DNA of 64,000 nt from Chitinophaga pinensis (GCA_945870425.1 CAMBSD010000017.1:8884-72883), one strand, 5' to 3'; shown: positions 9,201 to 40,243, counted from the first letter of the stretch. Notes: a model not told the origin generated them from the letters alone. Numbers and translations: made by a program.

Positions 9201-10814
9201 GATACAGTGAATTTACAACAGGAAATGGTTAACATCAATAATACTTGGGTACCGATGCAAATGAAAATTTATAGTCATATTAAAGTATTTGGATTTGGTG
9301 CCAATGATGTGAACATGGCAAGCATGAGCAACTACAATCTCAATCGTAGTTTTCCTCCAGGTTTCTTTAGCAACGAAACTTTCAAAATAGATAGAAATGC
9401 CAACCGCAAAGACAGTATGTATTGGAAAACTACTCGAACCATTATGCTTACTTCCGAAGAGGAAAAACACTATGGTAAATCAGATAGTATTTACCAAGCA
9501 CAACATACACCTCACTATTTAGATTCTGTGTCGAGGGTCAGAAATAAAATCACATTTGATAAAATATTTTTGAGCGGATATACCTTTAGCAAGCGTAATG
9601 ATACCCTTAGCAAATCCTTATCATTTGACCCATTGTTATTTGCTTTTGGATTCAATACAGTTGAAGGTTTATACACGAATTTCAATATTAGTTACAGATT
9701 ATTTTCAGGCAGCAGTGAAGAGTACTATTTAGGAAGAGATAGAACCTATCTCACTACCACCTTAAGGTATGGATTTGCAAACCAAAACTTAGCTCCTGGT
9801 ATACAATATTTCAAAACCATAGACAATAGGACAAGTACAAGCATCTCATTCAAAGTTGGACGATTTATTGAGCAATACAACCAAGCAGAACCCATTAGTA
9901 AAATTGTGAATGCTGGCTACACTTTGTTTGATAGAATCAATTACATGAAAGTATTGCAGAAAGATGTGATATCTATTACAGGTAGAAAAGAATTGAGCAA
10001 TGGCTTATATGCCAAAGCAAATGTGCAATTTTATCAAAGAGAAGCCATGGTAAACCATACCGATTATTCTTTTTCTGACAAAGACAAAAGAGCTTATAGT
10101 TCTAATAACCCTAGTAATACATATAGTGACGCACCTGCGTTCAACTCTCACTCTACCTTAGAATATGGCATCTCTTTGCGGTATGTTATCAAACAGAAAT
10201 ATGAAATGTTTCCAAACTTTAAGAATGTTCTTGAATCAAAATACCCTGATTTATATTTCAGTTTCAAAAATGCCATCATGACGGCCAGCAACAACAATAT
10301 GAGCAAATTCAATTATATGTATTTGGAGGCAGGTACTGGAAAAGACATTAACCTAAAATTATTGGGAGAATTGAAATTTGATGTGAATGCAGGAATATTT
10401 CTGTCAACAGACAACATGCTATTTGCCGATTACAAGCATTTCAATGGCAACCAAACCATGTTTTTGCATAACCCTAAAAACTTGAATGCTACGGGTGAGG
10501 AAACAAGGGTTAGATTAACAGGATTTCATGCCTTGAACTATTATCAATTTAGCACCAACGATAAGTTTATTGAGGCACATGCCATGCAAAATTTTAAAGG
10601 TTTCTTAATAGGTAAAGTACCATTATTACGTATGATTCACGCATACGAAGTAGCGGGAGTAAATTTCCTATATACACCCAACCTTACCTACAACGAGTTG
10701 TATTTTGGCTTAAGCAATATCTTAACCTTATTAAGGGTAGATGCAGGAAAAGTAACATCCATAGGAGGCAGTAATGATTGGTTCTTACGTTTTGGAATAG
10801 ATATGGATTTCTAA
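6213..10814 (+). CDS. Fusion protein: oligopeptidase B (S9 prolyl-oligopeptidase family) joined to a carboxypeptidase-regulatory-like domain and a DUF5686-like beta-barrel-type domain
   Basis: Signal peptide MIKKILLLSVLSLLLLSIATAQ. Nucleophile GGSAGGLLMGA with Asp (GYNDAQ) and His (GGHGG) completes the S9 triad by about aa 700. Continues in frame into GKVVDEYNEPVIYANVYLEESKIGTTSNQNGEFELKV (CarbopepD_reg) and about 780 aa more. No internal stop. Confidence 0.75.
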   Translation: MIKKILLLSVLSLLLLSIATAQENGTPKAEKILHQTIIHGDTLRDNYFWLRDKNSPEVINYLYANNAYADNKMKASSTLQKVLFDEYRSRVKETFDSKPQKNEGYYYYTRNVADKDYPALYRKKDSLSAKEQVVLDLNELSKEYFYFSLQFLNYSPDQSIIAYGVDTKGSLVSTMYFKILDIDSTLKNEKIDSVLSVSWANDNKTIYYTKAEAKTKRSYRLYKHTLGSNPLEDELLYEEPDKTYEIGLKRSSSKKFIIMEASKSQSSEAWYWSADDVRAKPLLFKKREAALLYDINHYEGDEFYIQTNYNALNQQLMKAPINAKSCKEWQVVIPHRSGVLFSGYSLLKNYLIWSEQQNVEQRILIKQRKTNQIDTLKSKITLGSMSFSIEDYDYEKTNEIRYSAETMVTPSEEYNYDLNTKKQTFYNMDSINGKYNPSLYASERVWAKAKDGVMIPITLAYKKGMLKNGNNPLLLSGYGSYGVSSMPDFNQLNISLLDRGFIVATAHIRGGREMGQEWYDDGRMLYKKNTFTDFITCAEHLIAEKYTSTAKLAVEGGSAGGLLMGAVTNMRTDLFKCVIASVPFVDVINTMLDESIPLTTGEFEEWGNPKNKKYYDYMKSYSPYDNVEPKTYPHMLITAGYNDAQVGYWEPAKWVAKLRELKTDTNMLLFKTVMEGGHGGSSGRYNKLIEQAYRTAFVMQCLGVKENYISLKGKVVDEYNEPVIYANVYLEESKIGTTSNQNGEFELKVKEFNNATLVVQSLTYEKQKIKLGLRTRIQNLVIKMKSENIQMKTVTVVANAVDPALGIIKQAIKKRKENYDRVKSFSSDVYMKSNVKLLEVPKNMPFFLKLVANGEVIDSNDLGLVYLSESSAKYYFEKPDNNKEEMMASKVAGQKQGFSWNRVKDVFFNLYEPTIDLSYYSERPFVSPIAPLASLSYKYKFKGSFYIDNKEVNKIEIIPLRKGDPLFQGYIYITSNDYQIYGADLRATKDAQIQFVDTVNLQQEMVNINNTWVPMQMKIYSHIKVFGFGANDVNMASMSNYNLNRSFPPGFFSNETFKIDRNANRKDSMYWKTTRTIMLTSEEEKHYGKSDSIYQAQHTPHYLDSVSRVRNKITFDKIFLSGYTFSKRNDTLSKSLSFDPLLFAFGFNTVEGLYTNFNISYRLFSGSSEEYYLGRDRTYLTTTLRYGFANQNLAPGIQYFKTIDNRTSTSISFKVGRFIEQYNQAEPISKIVNAGYTLFDRINYMKVLQKDVISITGRKELSNGLYAKANVQFYQREAMVNHTDYSFSDKDKRAYSSNNPSNTYSDAPAFNSHSTLEYGISLRYVIKQKYEMFPNFKNVLESKYPDLYFSFKNAIMTASNNNMSKFNYMYLEAGTGKDINLKLLGELKFDVNAGIFLSTDNMLFADYKHFNGNQTMFLHNPKNLNATGEETRVRLTGFHALNYYQFSTNDKFIEAHAMQNFKGFLIGKVPLLRMIHAYEVAGVNFLYTPNLTYNELYFGLSNILTLLRVDAGKVTSIGGSNDWFLRFGIDMDF

Positions 10815-23282: not shown

Positions 23283-26200
23283 TTAAGGTTTTATTGTTAA
23301 AACTCCTAATGAGCTATTACTATCCAATATTGGATAATCATTAAAATCAACTGATGCATCTCCATTCAAATCGGTTACAAAATATCCTAAGTCTCCAATG
23401 TTACTTGAAATATCTAATGCTGGATAATCATTAAAATCAACTGAACCATCTTGGTTTATATCTCCAGTATAAATCATAAAAATACCTGATCCGTTATCGA
23501 CCAAATTATTACCAAATGCTTTTGATGCACTAGTAGTAAAATTATATGAAACATTATTTGAACTAAAAGTAATTGGATTTGCACTCCACGTTTCAATTGA
23601 ATTGCGGTGTTTAACAACTACATAATAAGAGTTACCAATAATTGAACTAGGGAACTGAAAATTACCATTTCCTTCAATATTGATTACTGATTTACATGTA
23701 TAAATAGAGTTAAAAGGTGTTATTGACGAATGCAATTCTACAACTATGGTATCAGCAATATTTGATAATCCAGATACAGTTGCTGCTTTGGGAGAAGCAA
23801 TCATATTACCATTTCCAATGTTTAATCCTTGTAAAAATGCCGTTAAATTTAATGTTGTTCCTGAAGTTAAAAATGAGTTATAGGTATCTGGATTATACAT
23901 TGATAAAATTTGTCCACCTTCTACTTGCTCGCCACCAACGCCATAATGTGCTTGGTCTACCATTAAAAACATACCTGCTCCTAAGATTGATTGCATGTCT
24001 ATGATACCAGAAGCTTCTTCATCTTGTGTTAAGTAGTTTGCCGCGCCATTGATAAATCTGGTTGAATCATGGGTAGCGATTAATTTTAATTCATCCGTGG
24101 CAGTAGTGTACTGCCAAATTTTTCCTAAATGAACATTGTTTCCTACATCCTCTTGCAATAAGACATGACCATAATTATCAATAGTCATATTGTCCATCAT
24201 CTTTGGACCTTCAGTTCCATCTAAGACTGCGGTGATAGTTCCACCTGATTCTGGAGTATTGATATCCGAAAGGCGCAATCTCCATAAACGACTTGGTGCA
24301 GTGAATGAATTAGTAGTTACAAAATAGAAATCGTTCGGATTACTTGGATCCCAATGACCATCTTCTGGACGTAAGAAATTAGTTACTCCCAAAGCATTAC
24401 TTTTTGTATTTAAAGCTGCTCCTGAAGAATCTCTTACAATACCTAAATCAACCATAGTAAAGGCCGTATTGGCACCAGGAATTGAAGCACTAACTTCTGT
24501 TGTTAAACCTGTTACTGCAACTCCATATAAACGACCATTGCTTAAACCAGCTTTCTCAATTTCTGTTCCTGTATTGGTTTTGGTTCCAATGTAGAAATAA
24601 ACCTGACCTGGAGTTGCATCATCTGTACCCACAACGATTGTTTTGTTTTGAGCAACTGGTGAGGCAATTGAATTTTCCCATGAGAATTTACCTAAGTAAG
24701 GCAATTCATAAGTAGTTCCTGCATTTGCTCCTGTTACAATATGACCAAAAGCACGTCCTTCAGCGCCTGCTTCTTCACCATTCATAAAGATTCTTTCTTG
24801 TGTTCCTAATCCGCTTGTTGCATTATAGAATGCACTTACTGGTGGTAAATCAGAAGAGCAGAAACGGTTGAATGCTTTTTTGCTTGCAGTATCTGCAGGG
24901 TTATATAAAGTATAACCTGTTCCATTCCATAAATTAACTTTTTGAATCAAATCTGAACCACTAACTACGCTTAAATCAGATTTGTTGATTACCCATTTAG
25001 AAACAAATGCACCCTTAGCACCATGTGCTCTGTTTACTCCTAAGGTATTACCAAACTCATGACTTACTAAAAACGTAAAAGTACCGTTACCATTGTCGTA
25101 AGCACCTGTTCCATCTGGTGTTCCAGCCATCATGTAATTTCCTACTTTATCGCCTGCTGTTAATATCGCAGTAGTTGTTACTCCAGAAGCAACTGGCAAT
25201 AAATAAGGTGATTGTGAACTATTAGCACCAGCATTTGGAACAATAACAGCATCAAGTCTATTGCTTAATGATTGAATTCTTATATCACCTTTAATAGAAG
25301 TATCTCTTAAATTATATGGAGTACTTGTGTAGAAGTTACCCATGTATTCCGCGAAAGCATCTTGCTCTTTACCAGTTGTAGAAAAAGTTGCAATACCTGT
25401 AGATTTAATTGCGGTATCTAAATTAACTCTATTTGTAGCATTTGCAGGGAAAGGATAATTATCACCACCAGTAAATAAGAAGTCTAAAGTTACAAATTTG
25501 ATGATTCTACTAGTATCGCCAACCAAAGCACCATTTTTAACAATAGTATCTAATCTGTTTCCTAAAGAATCAACTAAAACCATTGAACGAATTCTGTTTC
25601 CAGCACTTAGGTTCACATTGTAACTGAACATAACACCACCAACTTGTGGGAATTGACCTGGAGTTGCACCAGCAGTAGTAGCAGAAATTCCATGTTCTAA
25701 AATTCTTTTTAATCCTGCAGCATTTGTTCTAGCAACAACTAATCCATTGTTGAATCTTAAAGAGTTTTCAATGTCTAATTGAGAGATATCACCTTTAGCT
25801 TTGCCAGCAGAAGGATTTGCAAGTGTATTTTCTAAGATTGTAGTGTTTCCAACTGCATTGATATTTCCAATTGCAGAGCGGATACCACCGCCATTTTTGA
25901 TAGAAACTTTTACTCCAGAATCTGCCAATTTAGCATACCATAAGTTAGCATCAGCAGTTAAGTTACCGAAATTTGTTTCTTCAGTTCTAACAAAATTTCT
26001 TCTTCCTTCTAAGAATACATTTGTTTTTCCAAATTTGTTACCGTCTTTATTATTTATAACTGTAGCAATTTGTGAAGTTAAAGTTCTAACATTTGCACCT
26101 TTACTTCCATTAGTAAAACCAGCAGTATAAGTACCATATAAAGTAGTAACCATAGCTGTATCAGCTGCATAAGCACCGTTGATAGTAGAATCTAAAAAGT

Positions 26201-28850
26201 TTGGTAATAATCTTCCTAAAGAATCGAAATCGCAAACAAAACGACCCACATATTTCCATTCAGCAGTTGTATTTAAAATAGCTAATGGCTCGTTGTCGTT
26301 GTTTACAGTTAAAATTGGATACGTATCAGCCACTGGAATGCCTGCTCTTAATCTGTCATTGCCATCAGCACATAATGAATGTGAACCACCAGCAATAATA
26401 ATATCAACACCTTTTAATAAGGGAGCCAAAGCTTTTTCGTTAGCCAATTGTTGTAAATGACTCATAACAATAATTTTGTTGATTCCCATTGTTCTTAAAG
26501 AATCAATAACTGGTTGTAATACTGCAGCTAAAGCAGGCATATCATTTACGTTAGCACCAATTACTGTAGTAGCACCTGGAGATGAAATAGAAGCTAATAC
26601 TTGCGTAGTAGCACCAACAATACCTACTCTTTCGCCATTCATTGCAATAATAGCTGAAGGTGCAATACCTTTCTTTTGGCTGTTTGCAGTAATGTTTACA
26701 GGAGTTTTAAAACTATCAACAAGCAAACGTTGGTTAGTAGTTAAGTAACTTAAATTAATATCGTTTGCAAAGTTTAAGTTAGCACTTAAATATGGAAATT
26801 GAGCACCAATCCAACGTTTATCAGCACCATTACTTCTAATATCAACACCTATGATACTATTTACCTCAGGAGTTCCTAAATCAAACTCGTGGTTACCAAA
26901 AGCCGAACCCTGGAAACCCATAATATTCATCATAGCAATATCTGTTCTACCAATGGCTGGTCTGATTGATTGTGTTCCTGCATAATAACTGCTAGCCGTA
27001 TTACGTAAAGGAGTTTGCATACTAGCATCTTCACCAGCGCTTAAAAACGGACTAGGAATATAACAATCACCAGAAGCTAACTTTACAGTATTAGGGTAAG
27101 TACCTTCTAAAGTATCTAATACAGCAGCAAAGTTTGGTGCATCTATGGGAGCATCAATTCCGCTTTCCATATCCGAAGCGTGTAATACTTGCATTTGGAA
27201 TGCACTACGAGAGTTTACTTGAAATACAGCAACTGTTCCACTTACTTCATTAGATAATAAAATCAAATCTTTTCCATTTGGACTTTCATTACGTGGTATG
27301 AATACAATTCCCTCTGGACCTAAGTCACCAACTGTAGCCAAATTAGCTTGACTTGGACTAACAGCAAAATTTCTTGTATTTATGTATTGCACAAAATATG
27401 GGCTATTTGGATTTGTGATATTGTAAATCATAATACCACCAATTCTTTCTAATGCTACAAAAGCATAAGTACTGTCTAATATTTTACCGATAGTTACTGA
27501 CTCTGGTTCAGGACCTTTGTTATCACTCCTATTATCTAATGCATTAGAAGAATGATTTGCATTAAAGTTTGAAGGATAAGCAGCTAAAGTTTTTCTTTCA
27601 AACTCATCTTTACTATCCCAAACTAATGAACCAGTTGAACCATTCCAAATAGAAAACGAACGACCACCAAATGCAAAAATGGTATCGAATAAACCGTCAG
27701 CATTATTATCACCAAATAATTTAGTAACAGTTAATCTTCCAATTCCTGTATTTGCTTTTAAGGCTGTTACCCTAGCTGCACCTCCAAAATTAGTTGGATC
27801 TAAATTATATGAACCAGAACCAACTGAAGTTTCTTCATTGTTAGCTGCACCCCAATCTGCTCTTGCATCACCTTCATTAGCGGTAACAAAATAAGTTTGG
27901 TTTCCAACTTTATAAGAAGAAATACCATCAGGTAAATACATTCCTAAAACTGGGAAAGTATCAATTTTGGCTAAAGCCGCATTTGAAGCACCATCTCTAT
28001 CAGAACCATCAAAAGCATTTTCCAATAAAGCATGATTTTTATAACCTAAAGGCAATAAAGATGTAATAGTAGCTGTATTTATATCTACAACAGCAACACA
28101 ATTGTTTTCTTGACAAGTTACCCATGCAGTATTGTTATCATCAGAGATACTTATGTATTCTGGTTCCAAATCTTCTGCAACAGTTGAGTTCCTTAAAAAT
28201 GATCCACCTGATTGAATTTTTCCGAAAATACGAATTTTTGAGTCAATTACAGTAGGAGCATTAAATGCAGTAAAACCAGCAGTTTGCACATTAGATTGAG
28301 TTAATCCAGCAAAACCACCTGAAACATCAATAATTGAAACCGAACCTTCTGGATCGATGGTGTAACCATTGTTTGGCTCACCTTCGTTAGCTACTAAAAC
28401 TTTGTTTCCATTTGGTGTGAAAACCACATTGTCGGCATTAGCACCCACTTTTACTTTACTAATAAAGTTTCCATTGATGTCTAAAAATACGATGCTACTT
28501 GCGTTTGTTTTACCATTCGAATCTAAAATGGCAGCAGCAATAATTCCTTTTTTGTTACAAGCTACCGAAGTAATGTCACTTCCATAAGGAGCCATTGAAA
28601 TAGAACTAATTTGAGCTGGGCTAGCAGGATTAGCCATGTTTACAATCCTCAAAGAATTGTCTGGACCGTTTGTAACAAACATTCTTTTTGAACTTGGGTC
28701 GTAAGCCGAAATTTCAGCTACTCCTCCATCTTGGTTGTAAGTTCCTATGGAGTACCTTCCAAGGAGTTGCGCATTGATTTGCGCTTTAATTTGTGAACCT
28801 ACAGATAATAAAAGCAGGGCACATAAAAATTTGTAAATTGTTTTTTTCAT
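23283..28850 (-). CDS. Giant secreted multi-domain phosphoesterase: beta-propeller N-domain, 5'-nucleotidase/metallophosphoesterase, phytase-like domain, novel dockerin-like C-terminal module
   Basis: 1855 aa. Signal peptide MKKTIYKFLCALLLLSVGSQIKAQ. Metallophosphatase motifs LHASDMES and GNHEFDLG. Phytase-like region. C-terminal ...[15 protein letters not shown]...[14 protein letters not shown]... with no canonical T9SS CTD. Confidence 0.8.
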   Translation of the reverse strand: MKKTIYKFLCALLLLSVGSQIKAQINAQLLGRYSIGTYNQDGGVAEISAYDPSSKRMFVTNGPDNSLRIVNMANPASPAQISSISMAPYGSDITSVACNKKGIIAAAILDSNGKTNASSIVFLDINGNFISKVKVGANADNVVFTPNGNKVLVANEGEPNNGYTIDPEGSVSIIDVSGGFAGLTQSNVQTAGFTAFNAPTVIDSKIRIFGKIQSGGSFLRNSTVAEDLEPEYISISDDNNTAWVTCQENNCVAVVDINTATITSLLPLGYKNHALLENAFDGSDRDGASNAALAKIDTFPVLGMYLPDGISSYKVGNQTYFVTANEGDARADWGAANNEETSVGSGSYNLDPTNFGGAARVTALKANTGIGRLTVTKLFGDNNADGLFDTIFAFGGRSFSIWNGSTGSLVWDSKDEFERKTLAAYPSNFNANHSSNALDNRSDNKGPEPESVTIGKILDSTYAFVALERIGGIMIYNITNPNSPYFVQYINTRNFAVSPSQANLATVGDLGPEGIVFIPRNESPNGKDLILLSNEVSGTVAVFQVNSRSAFQMQVLHASDMESGIDAPIDAPNFAAVLDTLEGTYPNTVKLASGDCYIPSPFLSAGEDASMQTPLRNTASSYYAGTQSIRPAIGRTDIAMMNIMGFQGSAFGNHEFDLGTPEVNSIIGVDIRSNGADKRWIGAQFPYLSANLNFANDINLSYLTTNQRLLVDSFKTPVNITANSQKKGIAPSAIIAMNGERVGIVGATTQVLASISSPGATTVIGANVNDMPALAAVLQPVIDSLRTMGINKIIVMSHLQQLANEKALAPLLKGVDIIIAGGSHSLCADGNDRLRAGIPVADTYPILTVNNDNEPLAILNTTAEWKYVGRFVCDFDSLGRLLPNFLDSTINGAYAADTAMVTTLYGTYTAGFTNGSKGANVRTLTSQIATVINNKDGNKFGKTNVFLEGRRNFVRTEETNFGNLTADANLWYAKLADSGVKVSIKNGGGIRSAIGNINAVGNTTILENTLANPSAGKAKGDISQLDIENSLRFNNGLVVARTNAAGLKRILEHGISATTAGATPGQFPQVGGVMFSYNVNLSAGNRIRSMVLVDSLGNRLDTIVKNGALVGDTSRIIKFVTLDFLFTGGDNYPFPANATNRVNLDTAIKSTGIATFSTTGKEQDAFAEYMGNFYTSTPYNLRDTSIKGDIRIQSLSNRLDAVIVPNAGANSSQSPYLLPVASGVTTTAILTAGDKVGNYMMAGTPDGTGAYDNGNGTFTFLVSHEFGNTLGVNRAHGAKGAFVSKWVINKSDLSVVSGSDLIQKVNLWNGTGYTLYNPADTASKKAFNRFCSSDLPPVSAFYNATSGLGTQERIFMNGEEAGAEGRAFGHIVTGANAGTTYELPYLGKFSWENSIASPVAQNKTIVVGTDDATPGQVYFYIGTKTNTGTEIEKAGLSNGRLYGVAVTGLTTEVSASIPGANTAFTMVDLGIVRDSSGAALNTKSNALGVTNFLRPEDGHWDPSNPNDFYFVTTNSFTAPSRLWRLRLSDINTPESGGTITAVLDGTEGPKMMDNMTIDNYGHVLLQEDVGNNVHLGKIWQYTTATDELKLIATHDSTRFINGAANYLTQDEEASGIIDMQSILGAGMFLMVDQAHYGVGGEQVEGGQILSMYNPDTYNSFLTSGTTLNLTAFLQGLNIGNGNMIASPKAATVSGLSNIADTIVVELHSSITPFNSIYTCKSVINIEGNGNFQFPSSIIGNSYYVVVKHRNSIETWSANPITFSSNNVSYNFTTSASKAFGNNLVDNGSGIFMIYTGDINQDGSVDFNDYPALDISSNIGDLGYFVTDLNGDASVDFNDYPILDSNSSLGVLTIKP

Positions 28851-29442: not shown

Positions 29443-31887
29443 TTATTTCACAAATTTAACTGTGTTTACAAAGCCTGTTTCCATGTTGCTTACTCTTACG
29501 AAGTAAACACCACTGCTCAATTTCTGTATGTCTAAGCTCTTTTTGTTACCCATCATGTTGTTGTTCATCACTTCTACACCTGATACGCTGAAGATTGATA
29601 CTTCTGATTGTTTGAAGTTTGCATTGGTAATCTCTACGTTCAATACATCTACTGCTGGGTTTGGATATACAGTCATATTTGCTGTTCTACCTGCCAATAC
29701 GCTTTCGATTGAGCTGGTTTTGTTTACAAATATTAACTCTAATCTACCATCCATAGTTGATGCTGGTTTTGAATCTACTGTGAATGCATATTTGTTGTTT
29801 TGACGTAAGTCTGTGATGGTATTGCTGTAATTATCTTTCAAATAGATATTGATGTTGGCATCAAATCCGTCTACTTGATTGAAGTTTAGGTCATACGTTC
29901 CTTCTTCTGCTACTGATGCGCCTAATGGAATTACTTTTGCATCCATGCTCTTTGTATTCATATAGTTTACAATCGCATATTTGTCTGTGCCAAAGTATGA
30001 GCTAATGTTTACACTTGGGTTCATCATTGGTTTTGCAACATCATCTGAATAGTTAAATTCATCTGATTTGTTATCCATAAAACGTACTACTGCTTCATCG
30101 CTTTCTGTTGCATCTTTTACTAAAGTCATTCTTAATGAATTTCTTTCTGCTGCTTTAAACATGTTCGATGGCGTATTGCTTACTTTTACTGATTCGCCTG
30201 CGCTTAATGCTGGTGATGAACCTGTAGCTTGTACAAAGAATGCTTGTCCGCTTGCTAAGTAACGAGTTACACTGTTTGTTGGTGTTGTTCCATCAAATGA
30301 TCCATATGAATTTGTGATTGGGTTCCAAACCCAAATAGTTCCTCCTACATTGGTTTTTGTCCATCCTGTAGAAGCGCTCCAATCAATTGGAGATGGGTAA
30401 GGATTTCCTACCAAGTTCCAACCATTACCTAAACTTGCATTGTAAGTTACTGGCATGCTCACTGGGCTTGATGGATTGCTTCCGCTTACCCATAAAGTAG
30501 TTGCGTTATTGGTTGTATTTACTGTAGTTAATGATATGCTTCTATCGCCTCTCACAAACACACGGTAACCTCTACCATTTGCTAAAGCTGAATTTCCATC
30601 AATAGCTTCCCATTTAGCGTTGATGTTGCTTCCACCTACTGCTGATGATTCGTTATATCCATAGGCTGATGATGAATTATTTGATGATGCATCTACAGTT
30701 CCTGTTGCACCTGTGATGTGAGTTCCGATACCTGAAGTACTTCCTGCATTGTCTCTCCATTGTAGAGTTGTTCCTCCTGATACTGGTGAGGCTAAGAATC
30801 TCCATCTACGTCCGTTTGCTGGAATATAACGCTCTGCGGTGATGGTTCCTGTTACTGCTGAACCTGAACTTAATTGATCGATTCTTGCTGTTCCTGCTGC
30901 TGTTGATTTTAATGTCAAACCATTTGTTGCTAAAATAGCTGTTCCTGTTTGGCTTACTGCGCCTGTTACTACTGCTGGCATGCTTAATGTTTTTGTTCCA
31001 CTTGATGCAAATCCTAAGTTTGTAACTGACAATGATGACAATGAACCTCCTACTGTTTGGCTACCTGAGCCTGTTAAGTTTAATGTGGCTGAGCTACTTG
31101 TGAATGTTCCATCTACTGTCATATCTCCACCTACGCTCAATGTATTTGAACCTAAATCGTGGCTTGTGCCTGACAATGATTTGTATGCTCTGCAAGACAA
31201 GTTACCTGATTGAGTTAATGTTCCTGCTGCAAAAATATTTACATCTTGACTTGAAGTTGGAGCTGCTGTACTTACTGATCCTGCTGTTCTTGAACCTGTA
31301 TTCCATGCACTGCCTGTCCAATAGGTTGGTGTATAACAAAATGCTTGGTTGGCTAGTACTGCTGCTGTTCCTGTATTTGATACTACTGAAACGTTGGCTC
31401 CTCCATTGTCATAGTTAAATCCTGCTGCTGGAGCTGCGTTGAATTTCCATGCAAAGTTTGGTGTTGATGTGGTTGAGTAATCTACTGTGTTTGTTAAAGT
31501 GATGGTGAAACATTTTACGCGTGATCCTGCTGGAATACTTGTTCCTGTTCCACTTCCTACTGAAGTGATAATCTTTCTGAAATAAGCTGGGGCGGTTGCT
31601 GAAAAACTCGCTGTACTTGCTCGTTGGCCTGCTACCAAACCGCTTGATGGTGTTGCTACCGTTAAGGTTCCGCCACTCGTCCATGCTGTGTTTACTAAGA
31701 AGGCTATCGTGCCTCCTCGTAGCTCAAATGAACTTGCTCCTGTGTTGTACAAGTATACATCTAAACTGTATACCTTTGAGCTTACTAATTGCTCATTCTC
31801 TAACCTCCACTCAAAGGTTGGTAGCTGCGCATATAATGTCGCGCCTAGCGTCATTAATAATGCAATTGTGGTAATGATTCTTTTCAT
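29443..31887 (-). CDS. Ser/Thr/Gly-rich secreted surface protein with a T9SS type-A C-terminal sorting domain
   Basis: 814 aa. Signal peptide. C-terminus VYPNPAVDVLNVEI...LSSGVYFVRV...VKFVK matches the Por secretion CTD pattern. Confidence 0.8.
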   Translation of the reverse strand: MKRIITTIALLMTLGATLYAQLPTFEWRLENEQLVSSKVYSLDVYLYNTGASSFELRGGTIAFLVNTAWTSGGTLTVATPSSGLVAGQRASTASFSATAPAYFRKIITSVGSGTGTSIPAGSRVKCFTITLTNTVDYSTTSTPNFAWKFNAAPAAGFNYDNGGANVSVVSNTGTAAVLANQAFCYTPTYWTGSAWNTGSRTAGSVSTAAPTSSQDVNIFAAGTLTQSGNLSCRAYKSLSGTSHDLGSNTLSVGGDMTVDGTFTSSSATLNLTGSGSQTVGGSLSSLSVTNLGFASSGTKTLSMPAVVTGAVSQTGTAILATNGLTLKSTAAGTARIDQLSSGSAVTGTITAERYIPANGRRWRFLASPVSGGTTLQWRDNAGSTSGIGTHITGATGTVDASSNNSSSAYGYNESSAVGGSNINAKWEAIDGNSALANGRGYRVFVRGDRSISLTTVNTTNNATTLWVSGSNPSSPVSMPVTYNASLGNGWNLVGNPYPSPIDWSASTGWTKTNVGGTIWVWNPITNSYGSFDGTTPTNSVTRYLASGQAFFVQATGSSPALSAGESVKVSNTPSNMFKAAERNSLRMTLVKDATESDEAVVRFMDNKSDEFNYSDDVAKPMMNPSVNISSYFGTDKYAIVNYMNTKSMDAKVIPLGASVAEEGTYDLNFNQVDGFDANINIYLKDNYSNTITDLRQNNKYAFTVDSKPASTMDGRLELIFVNKTSSIESVLAGRTANMTVYPNPAVDVLNVEITNANFKQSEVSIFSVSGVEVMNNNMMGNKKSLDIQKLSSGVYFVRVSNMETGFVNTVKFVK

Positions 31888-31969: not shown

Positions 31970-34900
31970 TTATGGTGTCATTGTCAATGTTCCAAGATTA
32001 CTGTTGATATCTAACAATGGATAATCACTAAAATCAACAGAGGCATCGCCATTTAAGTCGGTTACATAATATCCTAAATCTCCATTGTTACTGCTAATAT
32101 CTAAATCAGGATAATCATTAAAGTCAACCGAACCATCTTGGTTGATATCTCCAGTATACATAATGAATACACCATTTCCATCATCAGCCATATTGCTTCC
32201 AAAAGCTTTACTTGCTGCATTTGAGAAATCATAATTATTTGTTTGACCTAATACAATTGGATTTGCTGACCAAGTGGTTATTGAGTTTCTATGTTTGATT
32301 ACTACAAAATAAGCATTACCCATCAAGGTTCCTGAGAAACTGCTTGAAACCATACCTGAAGTAGAAACAGATGATTTGTTAGTAGCAATTAAAGTATGGC
32401 TGCTGGTGGTATCATGCAATTCAATTGTTATGGTATCTGCTATAGTGCTTGGGCTAATTCCATCTGCACTAAATGGGGCAGCTATCATTGCGCCATTGCC
32501 CAGGTATAAGCCTTGTAAATATAATTTCAAGTTTAATTGTGCCGAAGCTGCAATTACATTAAGAGTTAAAGTAGCCGCACTATCACAACCTGCTGCATTG
32601 GTTAAATGTGCAGTTTGTGTTCCTGCTGCATTAAAGGTTAAACCGTTCCAATTGTAAGGCAACTGGTTTGAGTATATAGTTACGTTATTACTTGATGTGG
32701 TTGGTGTGCAAACTGAAACTACAGTTATATTAACAATGGCGTTGTTAGTACCACCACAATTATTTGCAGTAACGGTATAGTTTGTTGCAACCGAAGCAAC
32801 AGTTGGCGTGCCACTAATAACACCTGTAGTAGTGTTTAAACTTAAACCTGCTGGTAAGCTAGGGGTTACGCTATAACTACTTACCGCTCCACCGCTCATA
32901 TCAATTTTATAAACTTCAGAGTTATCGTCATCAGCCACATACACATTACCTGCTGCATCTAATGCAACACCCCTAGGTGCACTAAAACCAGAACCGATAC
33001 TGCTAATATTTCCGTTTGGAGCAACCACTTTGATAACACCATTTGAATTTGCACCATCAGCCACATAAACATTATCATTAGCATCTACAGCAATAGAACT
33101 CATATCATCAAAGCCTGTGGCTAAAACAGATATAGCGCCATTGGTAGTCATCTTTTTTAATACTCCTCCGAAACCAGTACCAGAATAATCTCCTACATAA
33201 ATATTACCTGTTGCATCTACAGCTATGGCTTCTGGATAAACAAATCCTGAACCTATAACTGTTATAATTCCACTGGTATTTATTTTTTTAACTTTATTAT
33301 TAAAGTTATCTGTTACATAAATATTACCTGCAGCATCAACTGCAACAGCCCTTGGGTTATTAAAACCAGTATAGGTATTTAACAAATTACCATTTGGCGA
33401 AATTTTTAATACTTTATTGTAGTATTGATTTGTAACATATACATTACCTGCTTTATCGGTAGCAAGGCCTCTTGCTTTTTCTATACCTGTGCTATAAAAA
33501 GTGGTTTCATTACCATTTTTATCTATTTTTTTAATTACGTCGTTGTCATAGTCAGAAACAAACACATTGCCTGCAGTGTCTACGGCAACACCATAAGGAT
33601 CGTAACCTGATGTAATTGTAGAAACATTGCTTGGGCTTAGTGGCGTTATGCTGCTATTTTGTGTGAATACATTAGGTGTATTATAGCTAAAAGCATTAGG
33701 TGCTTGTGTAACGGTTAAATTTAATGTTACCACACTATCGCAACCTGCTGCATTCGTTAATAATATTGTATCTGTGTTATTACTTGCAGTATATACTTTA
33801 TTGCCTTTGGCTACCCAAGTGTAGCTGCCACAAGCAGTATCCGTGAAAATTGACACCGTTGGTGTGCAAACAACACAACTAGATAATTGCATAGGGCTGG
33901 TTTTATTGCCAGCAGTACCAATACCTAATGCTGCTCCCGCGAAATTAGCCCCCCAAACCCATAAACTGCCATCGGTTTTAATGGCTAGGCTATGATCATA
34001 ACCTGCACTAATGCTTGCCCAATTGGTGGCAGTGCCTATTTGCACGGGGGTGTGTCTACCGGTAGTAGTTCCATCGCCCAATTGCCCTTGATAATTTACA
34101 CCCCAAGCCCATAAACTGCCATCAGTTTTTTTTGCCGTGGTATAATACCCACCTGCACTAGTGCTAGCCCAATTTGTTGCAGTGGTTATTTGCACAGGGC
34201 TGTGTCTATCGGTAGTAGTTCCATCGCCCAATTGTCCATCAGTATTTAATCCCCAAGCCCATAATGTGCCATCGTTTTTAACGGCAACATTGTGCATTCC
34301 ACCTGCATCAACGCTTTTCCAATTGGTGGCAGTGCCAATTTGCACAGGGCTGTTTCTTTGGGTAGTAGTTCCATCGCCCAATTGCCCAAATCCATTATAG
34401 CCCCAAGCCCATAATGTGCCATCGGTTTTTGTGGCTACGGTACTACTATATCCTACACTAATGCTTTTCCAATCGGTCGCAGTGCCTATTTGCACAGGGC
34501 TGTTTCTTTGGGTAGTGGTTCCATCACCCAATTGTCCGTTTAAATTTTTACCCCAAGCCCATAATGTGCCATCGGTTTTAAGGGCCATGGTATGTTCAGA
34601 AATACCACAAATAATTGTTTTCCAATTGGTGGCAGTGCCTATTTGCACTGGGCTGTTTCTTAGGGTAGTGGTTCCATCACCCAATTGTCCGTTAAAATTT
34701 TTACCCCAAGCCCATAATGTGCCATCATTTTTTATGGCCATGCTATAATCATTCCCACCCACAACGGTTTTCCAATTCCAATTGGTGGCTGTGCCTATTT
34801 TCACAGGGCTGTTTCTGGTGGTTTGAGTGCCATCTCCCAATTGTCCCCAATTATTATAACCCCAAGCCCATAAACTGCTATCAGTTTTTATGACAATGCT

Positions 34901-37867
34901 TGCATATGTACCTGCACTAACGGCTTGAATACAGCTTTCAGAAAAGGTTGTTCTAATAGTAATACCACCCGATATAGCACTAGTTACATTGCTGCAAGCA
35001 TTGCTTACTTTACAATAGTAATAAAGCGTTCCACCTTCAGTAGTAGCTGGTGTATAGCTTGCACTAGTGGCACCAAGAATAGGACCACCATTAATGTTTG
35101 CAGTAGTGTTGCTATACCACTGATAGCTTAAAGTGCCTGCACCTGTTGCAGTTACTGATAAAGTAGTAGCAGTTGCATTAAGTCTTAGTGAACGAGTTGT
35201 AGTATCAGGCTGCCCTGTAATAGCTACCATACCCGGTGGCGGTGTAATTGTTACCGAACCTAAACTGCTTAAAATTGAACAATGAGTTCCATTACTAATA
35301 CGTGCACGCACATTATAAGTAGCTGGATACACATTGGTAAAATGAGGATCTTCGGTATAATATTGACCATTGATAGTGTATTGGATACTATTGTCTTTAA
35401 TGACTACATTTTTTACAGAATGGTAATTGTTTGCCCCTCCTCCGCATCTTGCAGCAAGAGCATATTGCCAACTAGATTTGTTATCGGTAGTATAAGCTGC
35501 TGGCAATTGGTAATTGCTACAAATAGTAGTATCACCGTGCACAATGGTTAGTTTTCCATCGTATGTTACAGATATAGCAACTGATTTATAACTATTTGTA
35601 TTTAGGGTTGCACTATAAGACTGAAGCTCAATTTTATTATAATAAATTTTAATGGTATTGAAATATTCGATAAAGCCAATAGCCAAACCACTGTTTACCA
35701 TTCCAGATTCTGCCGCACCTGCAGTACCGGCAGTATTTAAATTTCCATAGTTAAAACTAATTCCATCTCCTCCGTTTCCTCCTCCTACAAATACATCATA
35801 GTTGGCAGCAAAAGCATTGGGTTTAGCTACCGTTGAATTAAAAGCAATATAACCAGCCCTGTTGCTAGTATTTGGTGTAAGCACTAAATCGCCAAATCCC
35901 CCCCATATAGGGTTACAACAAGTACCCAAATTGCCAATAGTAGCAGCACCTAGTTGTTGATTAGTCAAACTAATATTTACTAAATCGTAGGGTGATGATA
36001 GACCGTGAGATACATTGCTAATAGTAACAGTACCACCTGTAGTTGTACAAGTAGTTGGGCTAGTAGAAGCTAGAGTTCCCGTAATATCTGGTGTATAAGT
36101 AATTGTTGCAGTTCCTATTTGAAAAGTATTTGAGCAATGAACCCCATTGCTTTTACGAGCAAACACGGTATACTGCCCAGGGGCTACACCAGTTAATGTT
36201 GTAGCTGAAGTAAAATTACCATTACCTAAAAAATATTGAATATCGTTGTCTTTAATGACTACATTTTTTACAGAATGGTAATTGTTTGCCCCTGCTCCGC
36301 ATCTTGCAGCAAGAGCATATTGCCAATTAGATTTGTTGTCAGCAACATAAGCTGCTGGTAATTGGTAGTTGCTACAAATAGTAATACCACCATGCACAAT
36401 GGTTATTTTTCCATCTTGTGTTACCGTTATAGCAACTGATTTATAACTACCTGTATTTAGGGTTGCACTATAAGACTGAAGCTCAATTTTATTATAATAA
36501 ATTTTAATGGTATTGCTATATTCGCTAAAGCCAATAGCCAAACCACTGTTTACCATTCCAGATTCAGCGGCACCTGCAGTACCTACAGTATTTAATACCC
36601 CATAGTTAAAGCTTAAACCATCTCCTCCGTTTCCTCCTCCTACAAATACATCATAGTTGGCAGAAAAAGCATTGGGTTGGGCTTCATTTGTACCAAAAGC
36701 AATAAAGCCAGCCCTATTGCTAGTATTTGGTGTAAGCACTATATCACCATTACCCCAATAAGGGTTACAACAAGTACCCAAATTACCAATATAAGCACCA
36801 CCAAGTTGATTGTTAGTTAGACTAAGATTTACTAAATCGTATGGAACAAAATTATGCGTTACATTGCTAATAGCAATAGTACCAGTACTTGTGCAAGTAG
36901 TAGGATTATTAGGGGTTATAGTTGCAGCAACAGATAAACTAGTAATAGTTTGTGTACCTATACTAGCTGTTGAATTATAACCATTAGCATTATAAGCAGC
37001 ATTACCAATTCTGGCATAAGAGCCATAAGTACCAGGGTTTAAACCAGAAAAATTATTATTTGTAGTAAAATTGGTACCATCTAAACTATATTCCCAAGGT
37101 GTGCGATCTTTTATGACTACATCATTTATGGAGTGATAATTATTTAATGCACCGCATCGTGCAGCAAAGCCATATTGCCAGTTGGTTTTATTATCGGTAA
37201 TATAAGCAGCCGGTAACTGATAGTTGGTGCAATAAACGTTGCCACCATGGGAAAGCGTAAGTTGTCCGCTTCCGGTAATTTCTATGCTAACTGATTTCCA
37301 GCCACTATTATTTAGAGTGCCATTTACATTATAAGATGTAAGTTGAACTTTGTTATAATAAATTATTATTTTGTTACTATAATCATTAAAACCAATAGCC
37401 AAGCCACTATCTATCATGCCAAATTCTCCATAGTTTCCACTACTAGTGTTTACTTTACCATAGTTAAAGCTAGTGCCATCTGCACCAGAGCCACCACCTA
37501 TATATATGTTAAAGTTGGCAATAAAATTAACGGGTTTCAATGCTGTTTCAGCAAATGTGATAAACCCTCTTTTGTCATTTGAATTTGGTGTTAGCTGCAA
37601 CCAGTGAGACGCACCAGGAGTGAATGCTGGCGTATAGTTCACCCCTCCCACTACTGCACCCACAGGCAAAGAAGATAAATCGGAATTTACTAAATTGTAA
37701 GGGGCTGCACTTGTTGCAGTATTAATTGTTATGCTACCGGTCCCCGAACAAATAGCAGAAGTTGTAGTGGCACTTCCCGTTATAGTCGGTGGTGTTTGAG
37801 CCTTGGCAAATGTGCCAAAGAGGAACAGCATGACTACTATCCAAATGGTTTTAAAGTTTGATTTCAT
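31970..37867 (-). CDS. Giant secreted surface protein: 3-4 L-type-lectin-like domains, RCC1 beta-propeller repeats, NHL repeats, dockerin-like C-terminal module
   Basis: 1965 aa. Signal peptide. Repeated about 290-aa units (…[25 protein letters not shown]…YQLPAAY…[14 protein letters not shown]). RCC1 repeats ([27 protein letters not shown]) about 7 times. NHL repeats (AVDxAGNVYVxD). C-terminus homologous to the 1855-aa protein. Confidence 0.8.
33880..34900. repeat. Intragenic tandem repeats of about 153-159 bp encoding RCC1 blades, with several copies near-identical
   Basis: The antisense ORF track shows [21 protein letters not shown] four times. The sense strand encodes repeated [21 protein letters not shown]. 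Confidence 0.8.
35250..37330. repeat. Intragenic tandem duplication of about 860-bp units (lectin-like domains). Two copies about 93-95% identical at DNA level, a third more diverged.
   Basis: Near-identical stretches begin near 35388 and 36245 (e.g. ...tgtctttaatgactacattttttacagaatggtaattgtttgcccct...). A diverged copy begins near 37110. Confidence 0.8.
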
Positions 37868-37994: not shown

Positions 37995-39614
37995 TTGAAT
38001 ATAATGAATAGTATTTTTCACAACCCAAAATGTGTTGTTAAGTATTTTATACTTGGTATTTTTAGTTTGCTATTATATGTTGATAATGTAAAAGCTCAAA
38101 CAAAAGCTGAAAAGGAATTAAAGGAAATTGTTTATAGATATAACAATGGACTTCAGTATGACTCAGCAATCCTAGCTATTAATAAGTTTATAAATCAAAA
38201 TAATAGTAGCAATCAAAATAAGTTTTATGCTAACTTATTCATGTCTTTTATATACAAAAGATTGCAAGATTATGCGCAAGTGAATAAATACTTAGATAAA
38301 GCTATCAGGTATGGCATACAAACCAAAAATAAAGATTTTTTTCTAGCCTTATATTACTGCCAAAAATCATTTGCTTATTTTGACATAAGTGATTTCTCTA
38401 ATGCCGACAGCCTGATGAAACCATTAATAGCAAATAACTACAAGTATTTAGAAAATGAGGATAAAGGTACATTGATGATACAAAAGGCATTTTTACTTCT
38501 GCGCAAAAATAAATATGATGAGGCTGCTGAGATGTATAAAGTTGCAGAAATTTTTATGCAGCAAAATTGCCCTTGTGAATTGCCAATAGTTTATGCAAAT
38601 AAAATACAATTTTATGAGGCTACGAGGCAATTTGACAAGATGGAAGAATGTTATAGAATGGGGATGGCTAGCGCTGAAAGTTGCGGAATATTAAAATATA
38701 AAATGATGTGTACCCAAAACATGTATTATTTTTATCGTAAGAATGGCTATTTTGAAAAGGCTATATATTATTCGAAAGCATGGGACAGTATGAATTTTAT
38801 TTTTAAAACTAATGAAAATATACAAAAACTGAAAGATGTTGATATTCAACTTAAAGAAAAGGCAATAAAAGAAATCATTGATAAACAAAATAACATCATT
38901 TTACAAAATAAAATACATACAAATAATTTAGTCATTTATACCTTAATCATAATTTGCATCACCATTTTATTTATATTTTATTATGAAATGAGAAAGAGTA
39001 AGTTCAAACGTCAACAACGTATGCAATTTACTAAGCAGCTTTTTGAGAAGATAGAAGAAGAAAGAAAAAGAATAGCAAGCGACCTACATGATGGTATAAT
39101 TAATGATTTGATTTCTCTCAAAAAAACCAAACAGGAATTACCTAACCATCTGGAAAGCGATATAGATACCACAATTGAAAATATAAGAAGCATAAGCAGA
39201 AATTTACATCCTGTAATGTTTGAAAGAGTTGGACTTAAAACCACAATAGAACAGTTAGTGGGGAAGATTCAAAGCACAGATCAATTCTTGATTACATCCG
39301 ATATATCATATAATTGCAGCTTGGATAACAATACAGAATTACAATTATTTCGTATTATACAGGAAGCTTGCAGCAATATGATAAAACATTCGATGGCCGT
39401 TGCTGGCAGGGTTTCAATAATTGATGAGCAGAAAATAGTAAATATAATTATAGAAGACAATGGAAAAGGATTTAATGTGAGCCAAAAATTAAATGATAAC
39501 AATTCCTATGGAATACATAATATCATATTAAGAACAAAATTACTTGGAGGTAAAATTCATGTTGAATCAAATTCCTTGGGAACAAAAATAAACATATCCA
39601 TACCTAAAAAATAA
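37995..39614 (+). CDS. TPR-containing sensor histidine kinase (HisKA_3 / NarL-type)
   Basis: Signal peptide. TPR-like helical region. TM helix (LVIYTLIIICITILFIFYY). H-box ASDLHDGIINDL. HATPase (EDNGKGF). Confidence 0.8.
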   Translation: MNIMNSIFHNPKCVVKYFILGIFSLLLYVDNVKAQTKAEKELKEIVYRYNNGLQYDSAILAINKFINQNNSSNQNKFYANLFMSFIYKRLQDYAQVNKYLDKAIRYGIQTKNKDFFLALYYCQKSFAYFDISDFSNADSLMKPLIANNYKYLENEDKGTLMIQKAFLLLRKNKYDEAAEMYKVAEIFMQQNCPCELPIVYANKIQFYEATRQFDKMEECYRMGMASAESCGILKYKMMCTQNMYYFYRKNGYFEKAIYYSKAWDSMNFIFKTNENIQKLKDVDIQLKEKAIKEIIDKQNNIILQNKIHTNNLVIYTLIIICITILFIFYYEMRKSKFKRQQRMQFTKQLFEKIEEERKRIASDLHDGIINDLISLKKTKQELPNHLESDIDTTIENIRSISRNLHPVMFERVGLKTTIEQLVGKIQSTDQFLITSDISYNCSLDNNTELQLFRIIQEACSNMIKHSMAVAGRVSIIDEQKIVNIIIEDNGKGFNVSQKLNDNNSYGIHNIILRTKLLGGKIHVESNSLGTKINISIPKK

Positions 39615-39616
39615 TA

Positions 39617-40243
39617 ATGACTATTTTAATCGCAGATGATCACCCGCTGACATTATTGGGAACAAAAAACTATGTTGAATCAATAGGCTATAAAGTGGAT
39701 TGTATCTGTTCAAATGGCATAGCGGCATACAACAACCTTTGTACTAAAAATTTCAGCCTTGCGATTTTGGATATAAATATGCCAGGTATGGATGGCTTGG
39801 AATTACTTGAAAAAATGTATCAAAGTAAAATGCGTACTAAAGTTATATTACTTACCATGCACCGTGAAGTAAGCATATATAAAAGAGCAAATGAAATTGG
39901 TGTGTATGGATATTTATTAAAAAATCATTCAGAAAGTGAGTTAGAACGATGTATTCAATCTGTTATCAACAATAAACAATACATAAGTCCTTTAATAAGT
40001 AATGAACTTGTTTTCGATACCCTTGAAAAGAATGATGATGTATATTCAATTCTAACCTTAACAGAAAAAAAAGTATTAGAAATGGTGGGTAGGCAATACA
40101 ATACCAAGCAAATTGCGAAACTACTTTTTATTGCTGAAAAAACAGTTGAATGGCACAGAAGAAATATTATTGAAAAACTAGGATTACCCAAGGAGAAAAA
40201 TGCTTTATTACATTGGGCATTAAAAAATAGTATGAATTCTTAG
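39617..40243 (+). CDS. LuxR/NarL-family response regulator
   Basis: Receiver (ILIADDHP...LAILDINMPGMDG) plus HTH_LuxR (LTEKKVLEMVGRQYNTKQIAKLLFIAEKTVEWHRRNI). Start is 3 nt after the HK stop. Confidence 0.88.
   Translation: MTILIADDHPLTLLGTKNYVESIGYKVDCICSNGIAAYNNLCTKNFSLAILDINMPGMDGLELLEKMYQSKMRTKVILLTMHREVSIYKRANEIGVYGYLLKNHSESELERCIQSVINNKQYISPLISNELVFDTLEKNDDVYSILTLTEKKVLEMVGRQYNTKQIAKLLFIAEKTVEWHRRNIIEKLGLPKEKNALLHWALKNSMNS

Follow-up and report, generated by a model that had tools for sequence, protein, structure and literature searches.

Here, we present an analysis of a C-terminal module shared by two giant secreted proteins that are encoded in a 64,000-nucleotide (64-kb) stretch of Chitinophaga pinensis DNA (GCA_945870425.1, CAMBSD010000017.1:8884-72883; hereafter, the window, with positions counted from its first letter). 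Three co-directional genes on the minus strand of the window encode proteins of 1965 aa (31970..37867), 814 aa (29443..31887), and 1855 aa (23283..28850). The 1965-aa and 1855-aa proteins end in the module, while the 814-aa protein encoded between them ends in a type A C-terminal domain (CTD) of a type IX secretion system (T9SS) and begins with a domain, here referred to as ND, that we propose as the receptor of the module. The coordinates of all features are listed in Table 1.

The shared module resembles an X module-dockerin dyad

The C-termini of the two giant proteins align over 189 aa with 60% identity and 77% positives (E 1e-78), and a hidden Markov model (HMM) of the family finds exactly two module copies in the window. 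The copy in the 1855-aa protein occupies about 23286-23870. The range of 23283-23900 given in an earlier, sequence-only reading of the window is, thus, essentially right, except that it includes the stop codon. The module described in that reading is real: the consensus that it quoted and two dockerin-type Ca loops are present in both translations. Similarly, the Sec signal peptides that it assigned to both giant proteins hold up; they are typical Sec/signal peptidase I (SPI) signal peptides as read from the sequence (one is MKKTIYKFLCALLLLSVGSQIKAQ), and both are without a lipobox. Each Ca loop comprises 12 residues with D/N/D/D/D at positions 1, 3, 5, 9, and 12 (D-x-N-x-D-G-x-x-D-x-x-D) and is followed by a helix; we infer that the loops bind Ca. 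In an alignment of 86 module homologues (A1), the signature YY.V.KHRNS.E.WS in the sandwich part of the module is near-invariant; G136, D137, Q140, D141, D167, G170, D171, and P195 are invariant; and the FNDYP motif after each loop is kept family-wide and nearly identical in the two repeats.

When the isolated modules were scanned against Pfam and NCBIfam at E<=10, only sub-threshold matches to Dockerin_1, EF-hand_8, and FG-GAP_3 were obtained. Dockerin_1 (PF00404) scores 13.1 and 12.3 bits on the window copies (E 0.12-0.2) and does not reach its gathering score of 22.9, which is passed by other members of the family (P0178 with 33.2 bits, L049 with 28.8 bits, and a small open reading frame [ORF] of L020 with 28.1 bits). 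The family profile matched dockerins among the Protein Data Bank (PDB) sequences at E 2.3e-4 to 4.4e-4 (5lxv_B, 2.3e-4; 2vn6_B, 3.3e-4), and these matches cover only the last ~50 residues (profile positions 190-240). Significant similarity to dockerins, which the sequence-only reading had named as an outcome that would refute it, was, therefore, found for the family profile and for some members and not for the window copies. The EF-hand_8 matches have E 0.13-0.2, and in the structural model described below no helix lies ahead of either loop; we, therefore, rejected a canonical EF-hand pair.

An AlphaFold2 (AF2) model of the module made from A1 (pLDDT 94.1, pTM 0.89) predicts a beta-sandwich at residues ~4-133 followed by helices at 146-158 and 176-187. 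In a Foldseek search with this model, the only matches at E<=1e-3 were the X module-dockerin dyad (XDoc) of CipA (4fl4_C, 2b59_B with a TM of 0.67, and 4fl4_I), and the structural alignments have 12-14% identity. As modeled, an Ig-like X module directly adjoins the dockerin and packs against it, and the two are oriented relative to each other as in CipA. A PDB profile search detected no sequence homology between the X part and clostridial X modules. Based on the dockerin homology, the Foldseek match, and the loop-helix pattern, we conclude that the tail is, in its predicted structure, an XDoc-like dyad of an Ig-like beta-sandwich packed on a duplicated Ca-binding F-hand domain. The dockerin half is homologous to known dockerins; the sandwich half is like an X module in fold and packing only. 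No Pfam or NCBIfam model covers the window module; its earlier description as novel nevertheless needs correction, because the fold is the known one of the CipA XDoc.

The tail does not resemble known T9SS sorting domains. In the Pfam and NCBIfam scans, no T9SS model of type A (TIGR04183/PF18962), type B (TIGR04131/PF13585 CHU_C), or type C (NF033708) matched either isolated module even at E<=10, and hhalign of the module against an alignment of type A CTDs from this and related loci gave a probability of 0.3%. The contrast drawn earlier between a module lacking type A CTD features and an 814-aa neighbor possessing them (Table 1) was, thus, well founded. A T9SS CTD is also absent from the six proteins with internal modules that were scanned (L078, L079, L049, P0124, P0194, and P0220).

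The module defines a large family with diverse architectures

A word-indexed search returned 154 relatives, all of which are proteins from metagenomes or metagenome-assembled genomes (MAGs). An exhaustive profile search, counted in representatives of 50%-identity clusters, returned 14016 of them at E<=1e-3; the number falls to 8416 at E<=1e-10 and to 3565 at E<=1e-30, and the proteins measure 200-3600 aa. The module is, therefore, not confined to two paralogs; such a confinement would have counted against the sequence-only reading. At least 105 module loci are present in species-representative genomes of Chitinophagaceae, Ferruginibacter, Flavobacterium, Crocinitomicaceae, Bacteroidales, and Ignavibacteria, and a single genome often has several copies; among the species-representative loci listed, the closest module (88%) is that of MAG Bacteroidia EUL_060.

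Of 264 proteins, 254 have at most 5 residues between the end of the module and the C-terminus, and Pro is the terminal residue in 105 of 120. Tandem copies, with two to five XDoc-like modules per protein, are present in P0178 (1313 aa), P0217 (1083 aa), and P0121 (405 aa), and internal copies in L078 and P0124/L055. In P0178, the sandwich motif is a "VVKHRNHL" variant, a hint of a superfamily wider than the close relatives. In stand-alone module proteins of ~260 aa, a signal peptide is followed by ~45 aa with "LTQGFQQP" at their end and then by the XDoc. In two distant lineages, stand-alone module genes lie directly downstream of a gene for a ~305-327-aa Lcl_C (PF07603) protein (L081, 8941-10789; L082, 9081-10783; L083; L084), and in P0186 (513 aa) an N-terminal module (9-258) is fused to an Lcl_C domain (429-511). 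This pairing suggests a second functional pairing of the module that is independent of ND.

Small ORFs of ~109-123 aa, with a signal-like N-terminus and the dockerin half only, sit directly downstream of giant XDoc genes (L020, 8644-8970; L023, 3085-3411; L025, 616-945; L043, 7603-7971). In L020, L023, and L025, the small ORF is followed by a member of the neighbor cluster with a T9SS CTD, which in L023 and L025 has the Pfam architecture PKD_6, MopE, and type A CTD. Elsewhere, three to five consecutive genes each end in the module (L059, L065, L050, L046 [Ignavibacteria MAG JADJMZ01], and L060), and no ND is detected near these arrays.

The 814-aa protein has a cohesin-like N-terminal domain

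The sequence-only reading used the 814-aa protein only as a contrast and overlooked the likely receptor, i.e., the cohesin-like domain of this protein. In the Pfam and NCBIfam scans, the type A CTD is the sole recognizable family in the protein. ND has no Pfam family at E<=10, and neither phmmer nor a profile search found a cohesin in the PDB; in its predicted structure, ND has the nine-stranded jelly-roll fold of cohesins, with scores for CBM3 close to those for cohesins. We also considered that ND might be a diverged copy of the X sandwich and rejected this idea because hhalign of the module and ND alignments shows no relation. The central ~530 aa (residues ~200-735) have no family match at E<=10 and are kept in homologues of ~815-837 aa that adjoin XDoc genes (L011, L014, and L090-L102).

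ND recurs at other XDoc loci, as evidenced by a BLAST search of these loci with the 814-aa protein, in which its first ~180 residues were matched. ND is the N-terminus of CTD-bearing proteins encoded directly beside module genes (L011, L014, L037, L080, and L041), and the T9SS domains of ND partners are of type A or type B (CHU_C). Among the loci found by searching with the XDoc, ND and XDoc also occur together in one protein (L013 and L038, each with two ND; L030; L041; and L074). In L003 (JBBALJ010000041.1 of MAG Bacteroidia EUL_060), a 1402-aa protein with three ND is encoded just upstream of a module gene, and a single in-frame TAG (7356-7358) separates its ORF from the 406-aa XDoc ORF. 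Should this TAG be read through or stem from faulty sequencing, the resulting protein, with three ND and an XDoc, would be a scaffoldin of the CipA type.

Genes for ND and XDoc are linked

Clustering of the neighbors of module genes in 85 loci revealed proteins with T9SS CTDs as the commonest class. For the XDoc-seeded loci, ND was counted from matches to an alignment of ND domains only (A2), because an HMM from the alignment A3, which contains whole proteins with CTDs and modules, over-called ND (e.g., in L075 and in stand-alone 260-aa proteins). By this count, 8 of 10 ND-only genes immediately adjoin an XDoc gene, compared with 2.3 expected at random within the locus.

Searches starting from ND gave a similar picture. 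The database matches include five proteins with the order signal peptide-ND-XDoc (P0265 and P0267-P0270) and five with ND and a T9SS CTD. On ND-seeded contigs, an XDoc gene lies directly upstream of two tandem ND-CTD genes (L085), or the order is ND, XDoc, ND (L086). Among 13 metagenome loci seeded from ND of the 814-aa type, all 8 with upstream sequence (L091-94, L097, L099, L100, and L102) encode, immediately upstream of the ND...CTD gene, a protein that ends in an XDoc, and the cargo differs in size and content; this sample was seeded with a closer ND subset and is, therefore, biased toward relatives of the 814-aa type. In its genomic coupling to dockerin genes and in its fused and tandem forms, ND, thus, behaves as expected of a cohesin.

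A model for docking and its alternatives

The gene arrangement mirrors the logic of a cellulosome. Because of this, we propose that the XDoc tails dock, cellulosome-style, on the cohesin-like ND of the T9SS-anchored 814-aa protein, a reading that we consider to have somewhat better than even chances. According to this model, many different kinds of large proteins exported by Sec carry the XDoc fixed to their C-terminus (in this window, the nucleotidase/phosphatase and the RCC1/NHL propeller proteins); the 814-aa protein would be exported and fixed to the outer surface by its type A CTD; and both giant proteins would dock, non-covalently and in a Ca-dependent manner, onto its ND. Proteins with both ND and XDoc would function as adaptors or scaffoldins (several ND and an XDoc, as in CipA), while cargo would consist of a passenger and an XDoc. 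The interaction is deduced from fold and linkage, and the placement of the proteins at the surface and the path that cargo without a CTD takes through the outer membrane are likewise deductions. NCBIfam "choice-of-anchor" domains are so named because they occur with alternative C-terminal anchoring signals, and the presence of such a domain in the 1855-aa protein fits with a shared tail in the anchoring slot. Of the functions previously suggested for the module, anchoring or sorting, anchoring is most likely, while sorting in the sense of a secretion signal is less supported.

Several observations weigh against this proposal. ND was found in only ~12 of the 85 XDoc-seeded loci and was not detected in the tandem arrays of Ignavibacteria or Flavobacterium, and, consequently, most members of the family are without an identified receptor. 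FNDYP, which comprises the putative recognition residues, is conserved family-wide, unlike in dockerins with diversified cohesin specificities, and this might mean that the family has one conserved ligand, which may not be a cohesin. Moreover, the cargo has an SPI signal peptide and neither a lipobox nor a CTD, leaving its passage across the outer membrane unexplained. The module might, for instance, anchor proteins via a ligand that is not a cohesin, such as lipopolysaccharide, a capsular glycan, or a conserved outer membrane protein, through the HRNS..WS face and/or the Ca sites, in which case ND would be no more than surface cargo that is co-regulated, or a carbohydrate binder of the CBM3 kind. 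The conservation of the sandwich motif and FNDYP across distant lineages suggests one invariant ligand and favors this idea, which would also accommodate the lack of a detectable ND in most loci, the closeness of CBM3 to cohesins in the scoring of ND, and the stand-alone ~260-aa modules that pair with, or in P0186 are fused to, lectin-like Lcl_C proteins rather than ND. Nevertheless, we consider it unlikely, because the tight, reciprocal, and strictly adjacent linkage of ND and XDoc together with their repeated fusion is a hallmark of cohesin-dockerin pairs, and because the proteins most similar in structure to the dyad as a whole are cohesin binders.

Because the cargo lacks a known signal for export across the outer membrane, two ideas that invoke the T9SS directly have to be kept alive. 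One is that XDoc proteins hitchhike, i.e., fold in the periplasm, plug into ND, and cross the T9SS translocon on the sorting signal of their partner. Literature searches found nothing for or against T9SS hitchhiking, and we give it only about a one-in-seven kind of chance, which is to say that it is quite unlikely; if true, the XDoc/ND pair would not only anchor proteins but also act as a secretion adaptor and represent a mode of T9SS substrate recruitment. The other, which we regard as improbable, is that the module itself is a new class of signal for secretion or sorting by the T9SS (or another outer membrane system), which occupies the slot of type A and B CTDs and is read by the translocon. 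The C-terminal position and the conserved last Pro fit this idea, as do the occurrence of the module only in the T9SS-bearing lineages Bacteroidota and Ignavibacteria, passengers that are like T9SS cargo (FN3, PKD, SprB, and choice-of-anchor I) in carriers without another evident outer membrane route, and the "choice of anchor" pattern of ND proteins, whose C-terminal element is a T9SS CTD or else the module; we rate it low because of how the module folds, because it also occurs in tandem and internally, and because there are mini-proteins with the dockerin alone. Finally, Ca-binding repeats often stabilize secreted proteins, and the module could be a structural or Ca-dependent folding cap without a targeting role, e.g., stabilizing the end of large beta-rich exoproteins. 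This would leave unexplained both the strict linkage to a cohesin-like, T9SS-anchored partner and the occurrence of the module on unrelated passengers and in stand-alone and tandem forms, and we find it hardly credible.

If docking on ND is correct, environmental Bacteroidota and Ignavibacteria would have thousands of large surface proteins, labeled "hypothetical", organized by a cohesin-dockerin-type system that is unseen by current domain libraries and has its receptors wired to type IX secretion, extending cellulosome-style assembly to diderm, non-cellulolytic bacteria. The XDoc-like module and the cryptic cohesin-like domain would be two new annotatable domain families, and the question would be posed of how folded cargo without a T9SS signal crosses the outer membrane to a T9SS-anchored receptor.

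Other features of the window

Table 1. Features of the two module-bearing proteins and of the 814-aa protein in the window.
Feature	Coordinates	Strand	Remarks
Cargo 1, 1855 aa	23283..28850	-	Signal peptide, choice-of-anchor I domain, 5'-nucleotidase C-terminal domain, PhoX-like region, XDoc
Dockerin-like subdomain, 1855-aa protein, residues 1794-1855	23286..23471	-	Two F-hand repeats, conserved terminal Pro
X-module-like beta-sandwich, 1855-aa protein, residues ~1664-1793	23472..23861	-	Holds the near-invariant YYVVVKHRNSIETWS motif
T9SS type A C-terminal sorting domain, 814-aa protein, residues 740-814	29446..29670	-	PF18962 E 7.6e-15, TIGR04183 E 1.2e-12
Cohesin-like N-terminal domain ND, 814-aa protein, residues 19-196	31300..31833	-	Proposed XDoc receptor
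Cargo 2, 1965 aa	31970..37867	-	Signal peptide, three unannotated ~250-aa repeats, RCC1 propeller, NHL repeats, He_PIG Ig domain, XDoc
Dockerin-like subdomain, 1965-aa protein, residues 1904-1965	31973..32158	-	Two loops like the 1855-aa copy, with which it aligns
X-module-like beta-sandwich, 1965-aa protein, residues ~1778-1903	32159..32536	-	60% identical to the other copy, E 1e-78; family HMM 317.5 bits

The domain assignments of the 1855-aa protein derive from matches to PF22494 (E 3e-131) and NF038117 (E 7.5e-154), both of which are choice-of-anchor I models, PF02872 (E 6.5e-19), and PF05787 (E 3.6e-8); an exact-sequence look-up of this protein gave no record. Those of the 1965-aa protein derive from matches to PF25390 (E 2.7e-131), PF00415, PF01436, and PF05345. 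Its three ~250-aa repeats (residues ~25-830; window 35400-37800, minus strand) contain the motifs "GGG.G.DG.SFNYG" and "SGLAIGF.EY.N.I.IYYNK" and have no Pfam match; they may represent a lectin-like domain. A short Cys-containing unit, "C.P...S......C..Y.W.....Y.......", occurs twice in the same protein (window 32540-32700 and ~33770-33940, minus strand), and one copy directly precedes the XDoc module; the N-terminal positions of the A1 profile match this Cys-unit stretch in many large members of the family.

Upstream of the three genes lies a divergent pair of genes for a histidine kinase and a LuxR regulator (37995-40243), and housekeeping genes lie downstream. On the plus strand, 56656-59241 encodes a second T9SS substrate, namely, a metallopeptidase of the M36 fungalysin type that has a PA domain and a type A CTD, confirming that the host uses the T9SS. 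Also on the plus strand, 6213-10814 encodes a 1533-aa protein in which a complete S9 prolyl oligopeptidase (propeller and catalytic domain), CarboxypepD_reg, and a full-length DUF5686 (E 4e-187) are combined in an unusual fusion.

Comparison with known systems

In Clostridium thermocellum, an XDoc tethers the scaffoldin CipA to cell-surface cohesins. This XDoc, whose dockerin is of type II (PDB 2b59, 3kcp, 4fl4, and 5g5d), is the nearest known dyad to the one described here; however, the two share only 12-14% identity, with no detectable sequence homology in the X part, and the sandwich described here is longer (~130 aa versus ~95 aa in the CipA X module) and is marked by an HRNS..WS signature of its own. 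Instead of Firmicutes, diderm Bacteroidota and Ignavibacteria are the hosts, and, unlike in the CipA system, the XDoc is present on enzymes and adhesin-like cargo in addition to scaffoldin-like proteins, the anchor is a T9SS CTD instead of SLH repeats, and there is no link to cellulases. Type I dockerins (PF00404) and non-cellulosomal dockerins are similar in their duplicated 12-residue DxNxDGxxDxxD loops, each with a helix, and in their C-terminal position; compared with the PF00404 dockerins, the dockerin described here is obligatorily joined to a conserved sandwich, and the FNDYP helix starts are near-identical in the two repeats and across the family. T9SS CTDs of types A, B, and C are also C-terminal on large secreted multidomain proteins of the same phyla and have a beta-sandwich component, whereas the module has double their length, a helical Ca-binding domain at its end, and, in some proteins, an internal or tandem position, and it has neither sequence nor profile similarity to them.

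Reports of dockerins exist for rumen Prevotella and Bacteroides (PMC6487960). In "Ca. Stygibacter" (Cloacimonadota), dockerin-bearing enzymes and a cohesin scaffoldin with a T9SS CTD were inferred from the genome (PMC8542988). Our literature searches for cohesins or dockerins together with the T9SS in Bacteroidota yielded only this inference and surveys of rumen dockerins, and no report of the XDoc family described here or of its cryptic cohesin was found. Similar to our proposal, "Ca. Stygibacter" is a diderm of the FCB group that has dockerin-tagged secreted proteins and a cohesin protein attached via a T9SS C-terminal domain; however, its domains are recognized by the standard InterPro cohesin and dockerin models (PMC8542988), while here sequence models do not see the cohesin-like domain, and the dockerin belongs to an XDoc; phylum and cargo are also different. 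Altogether, we conclude that the module represents a large, unannotated family of divergent XDocs in Bacteroidota and Ignavibacteria, i.e., a known architectural class in a new setting, with a newly recognized cohesin-like partner that is tied to the T9SS.
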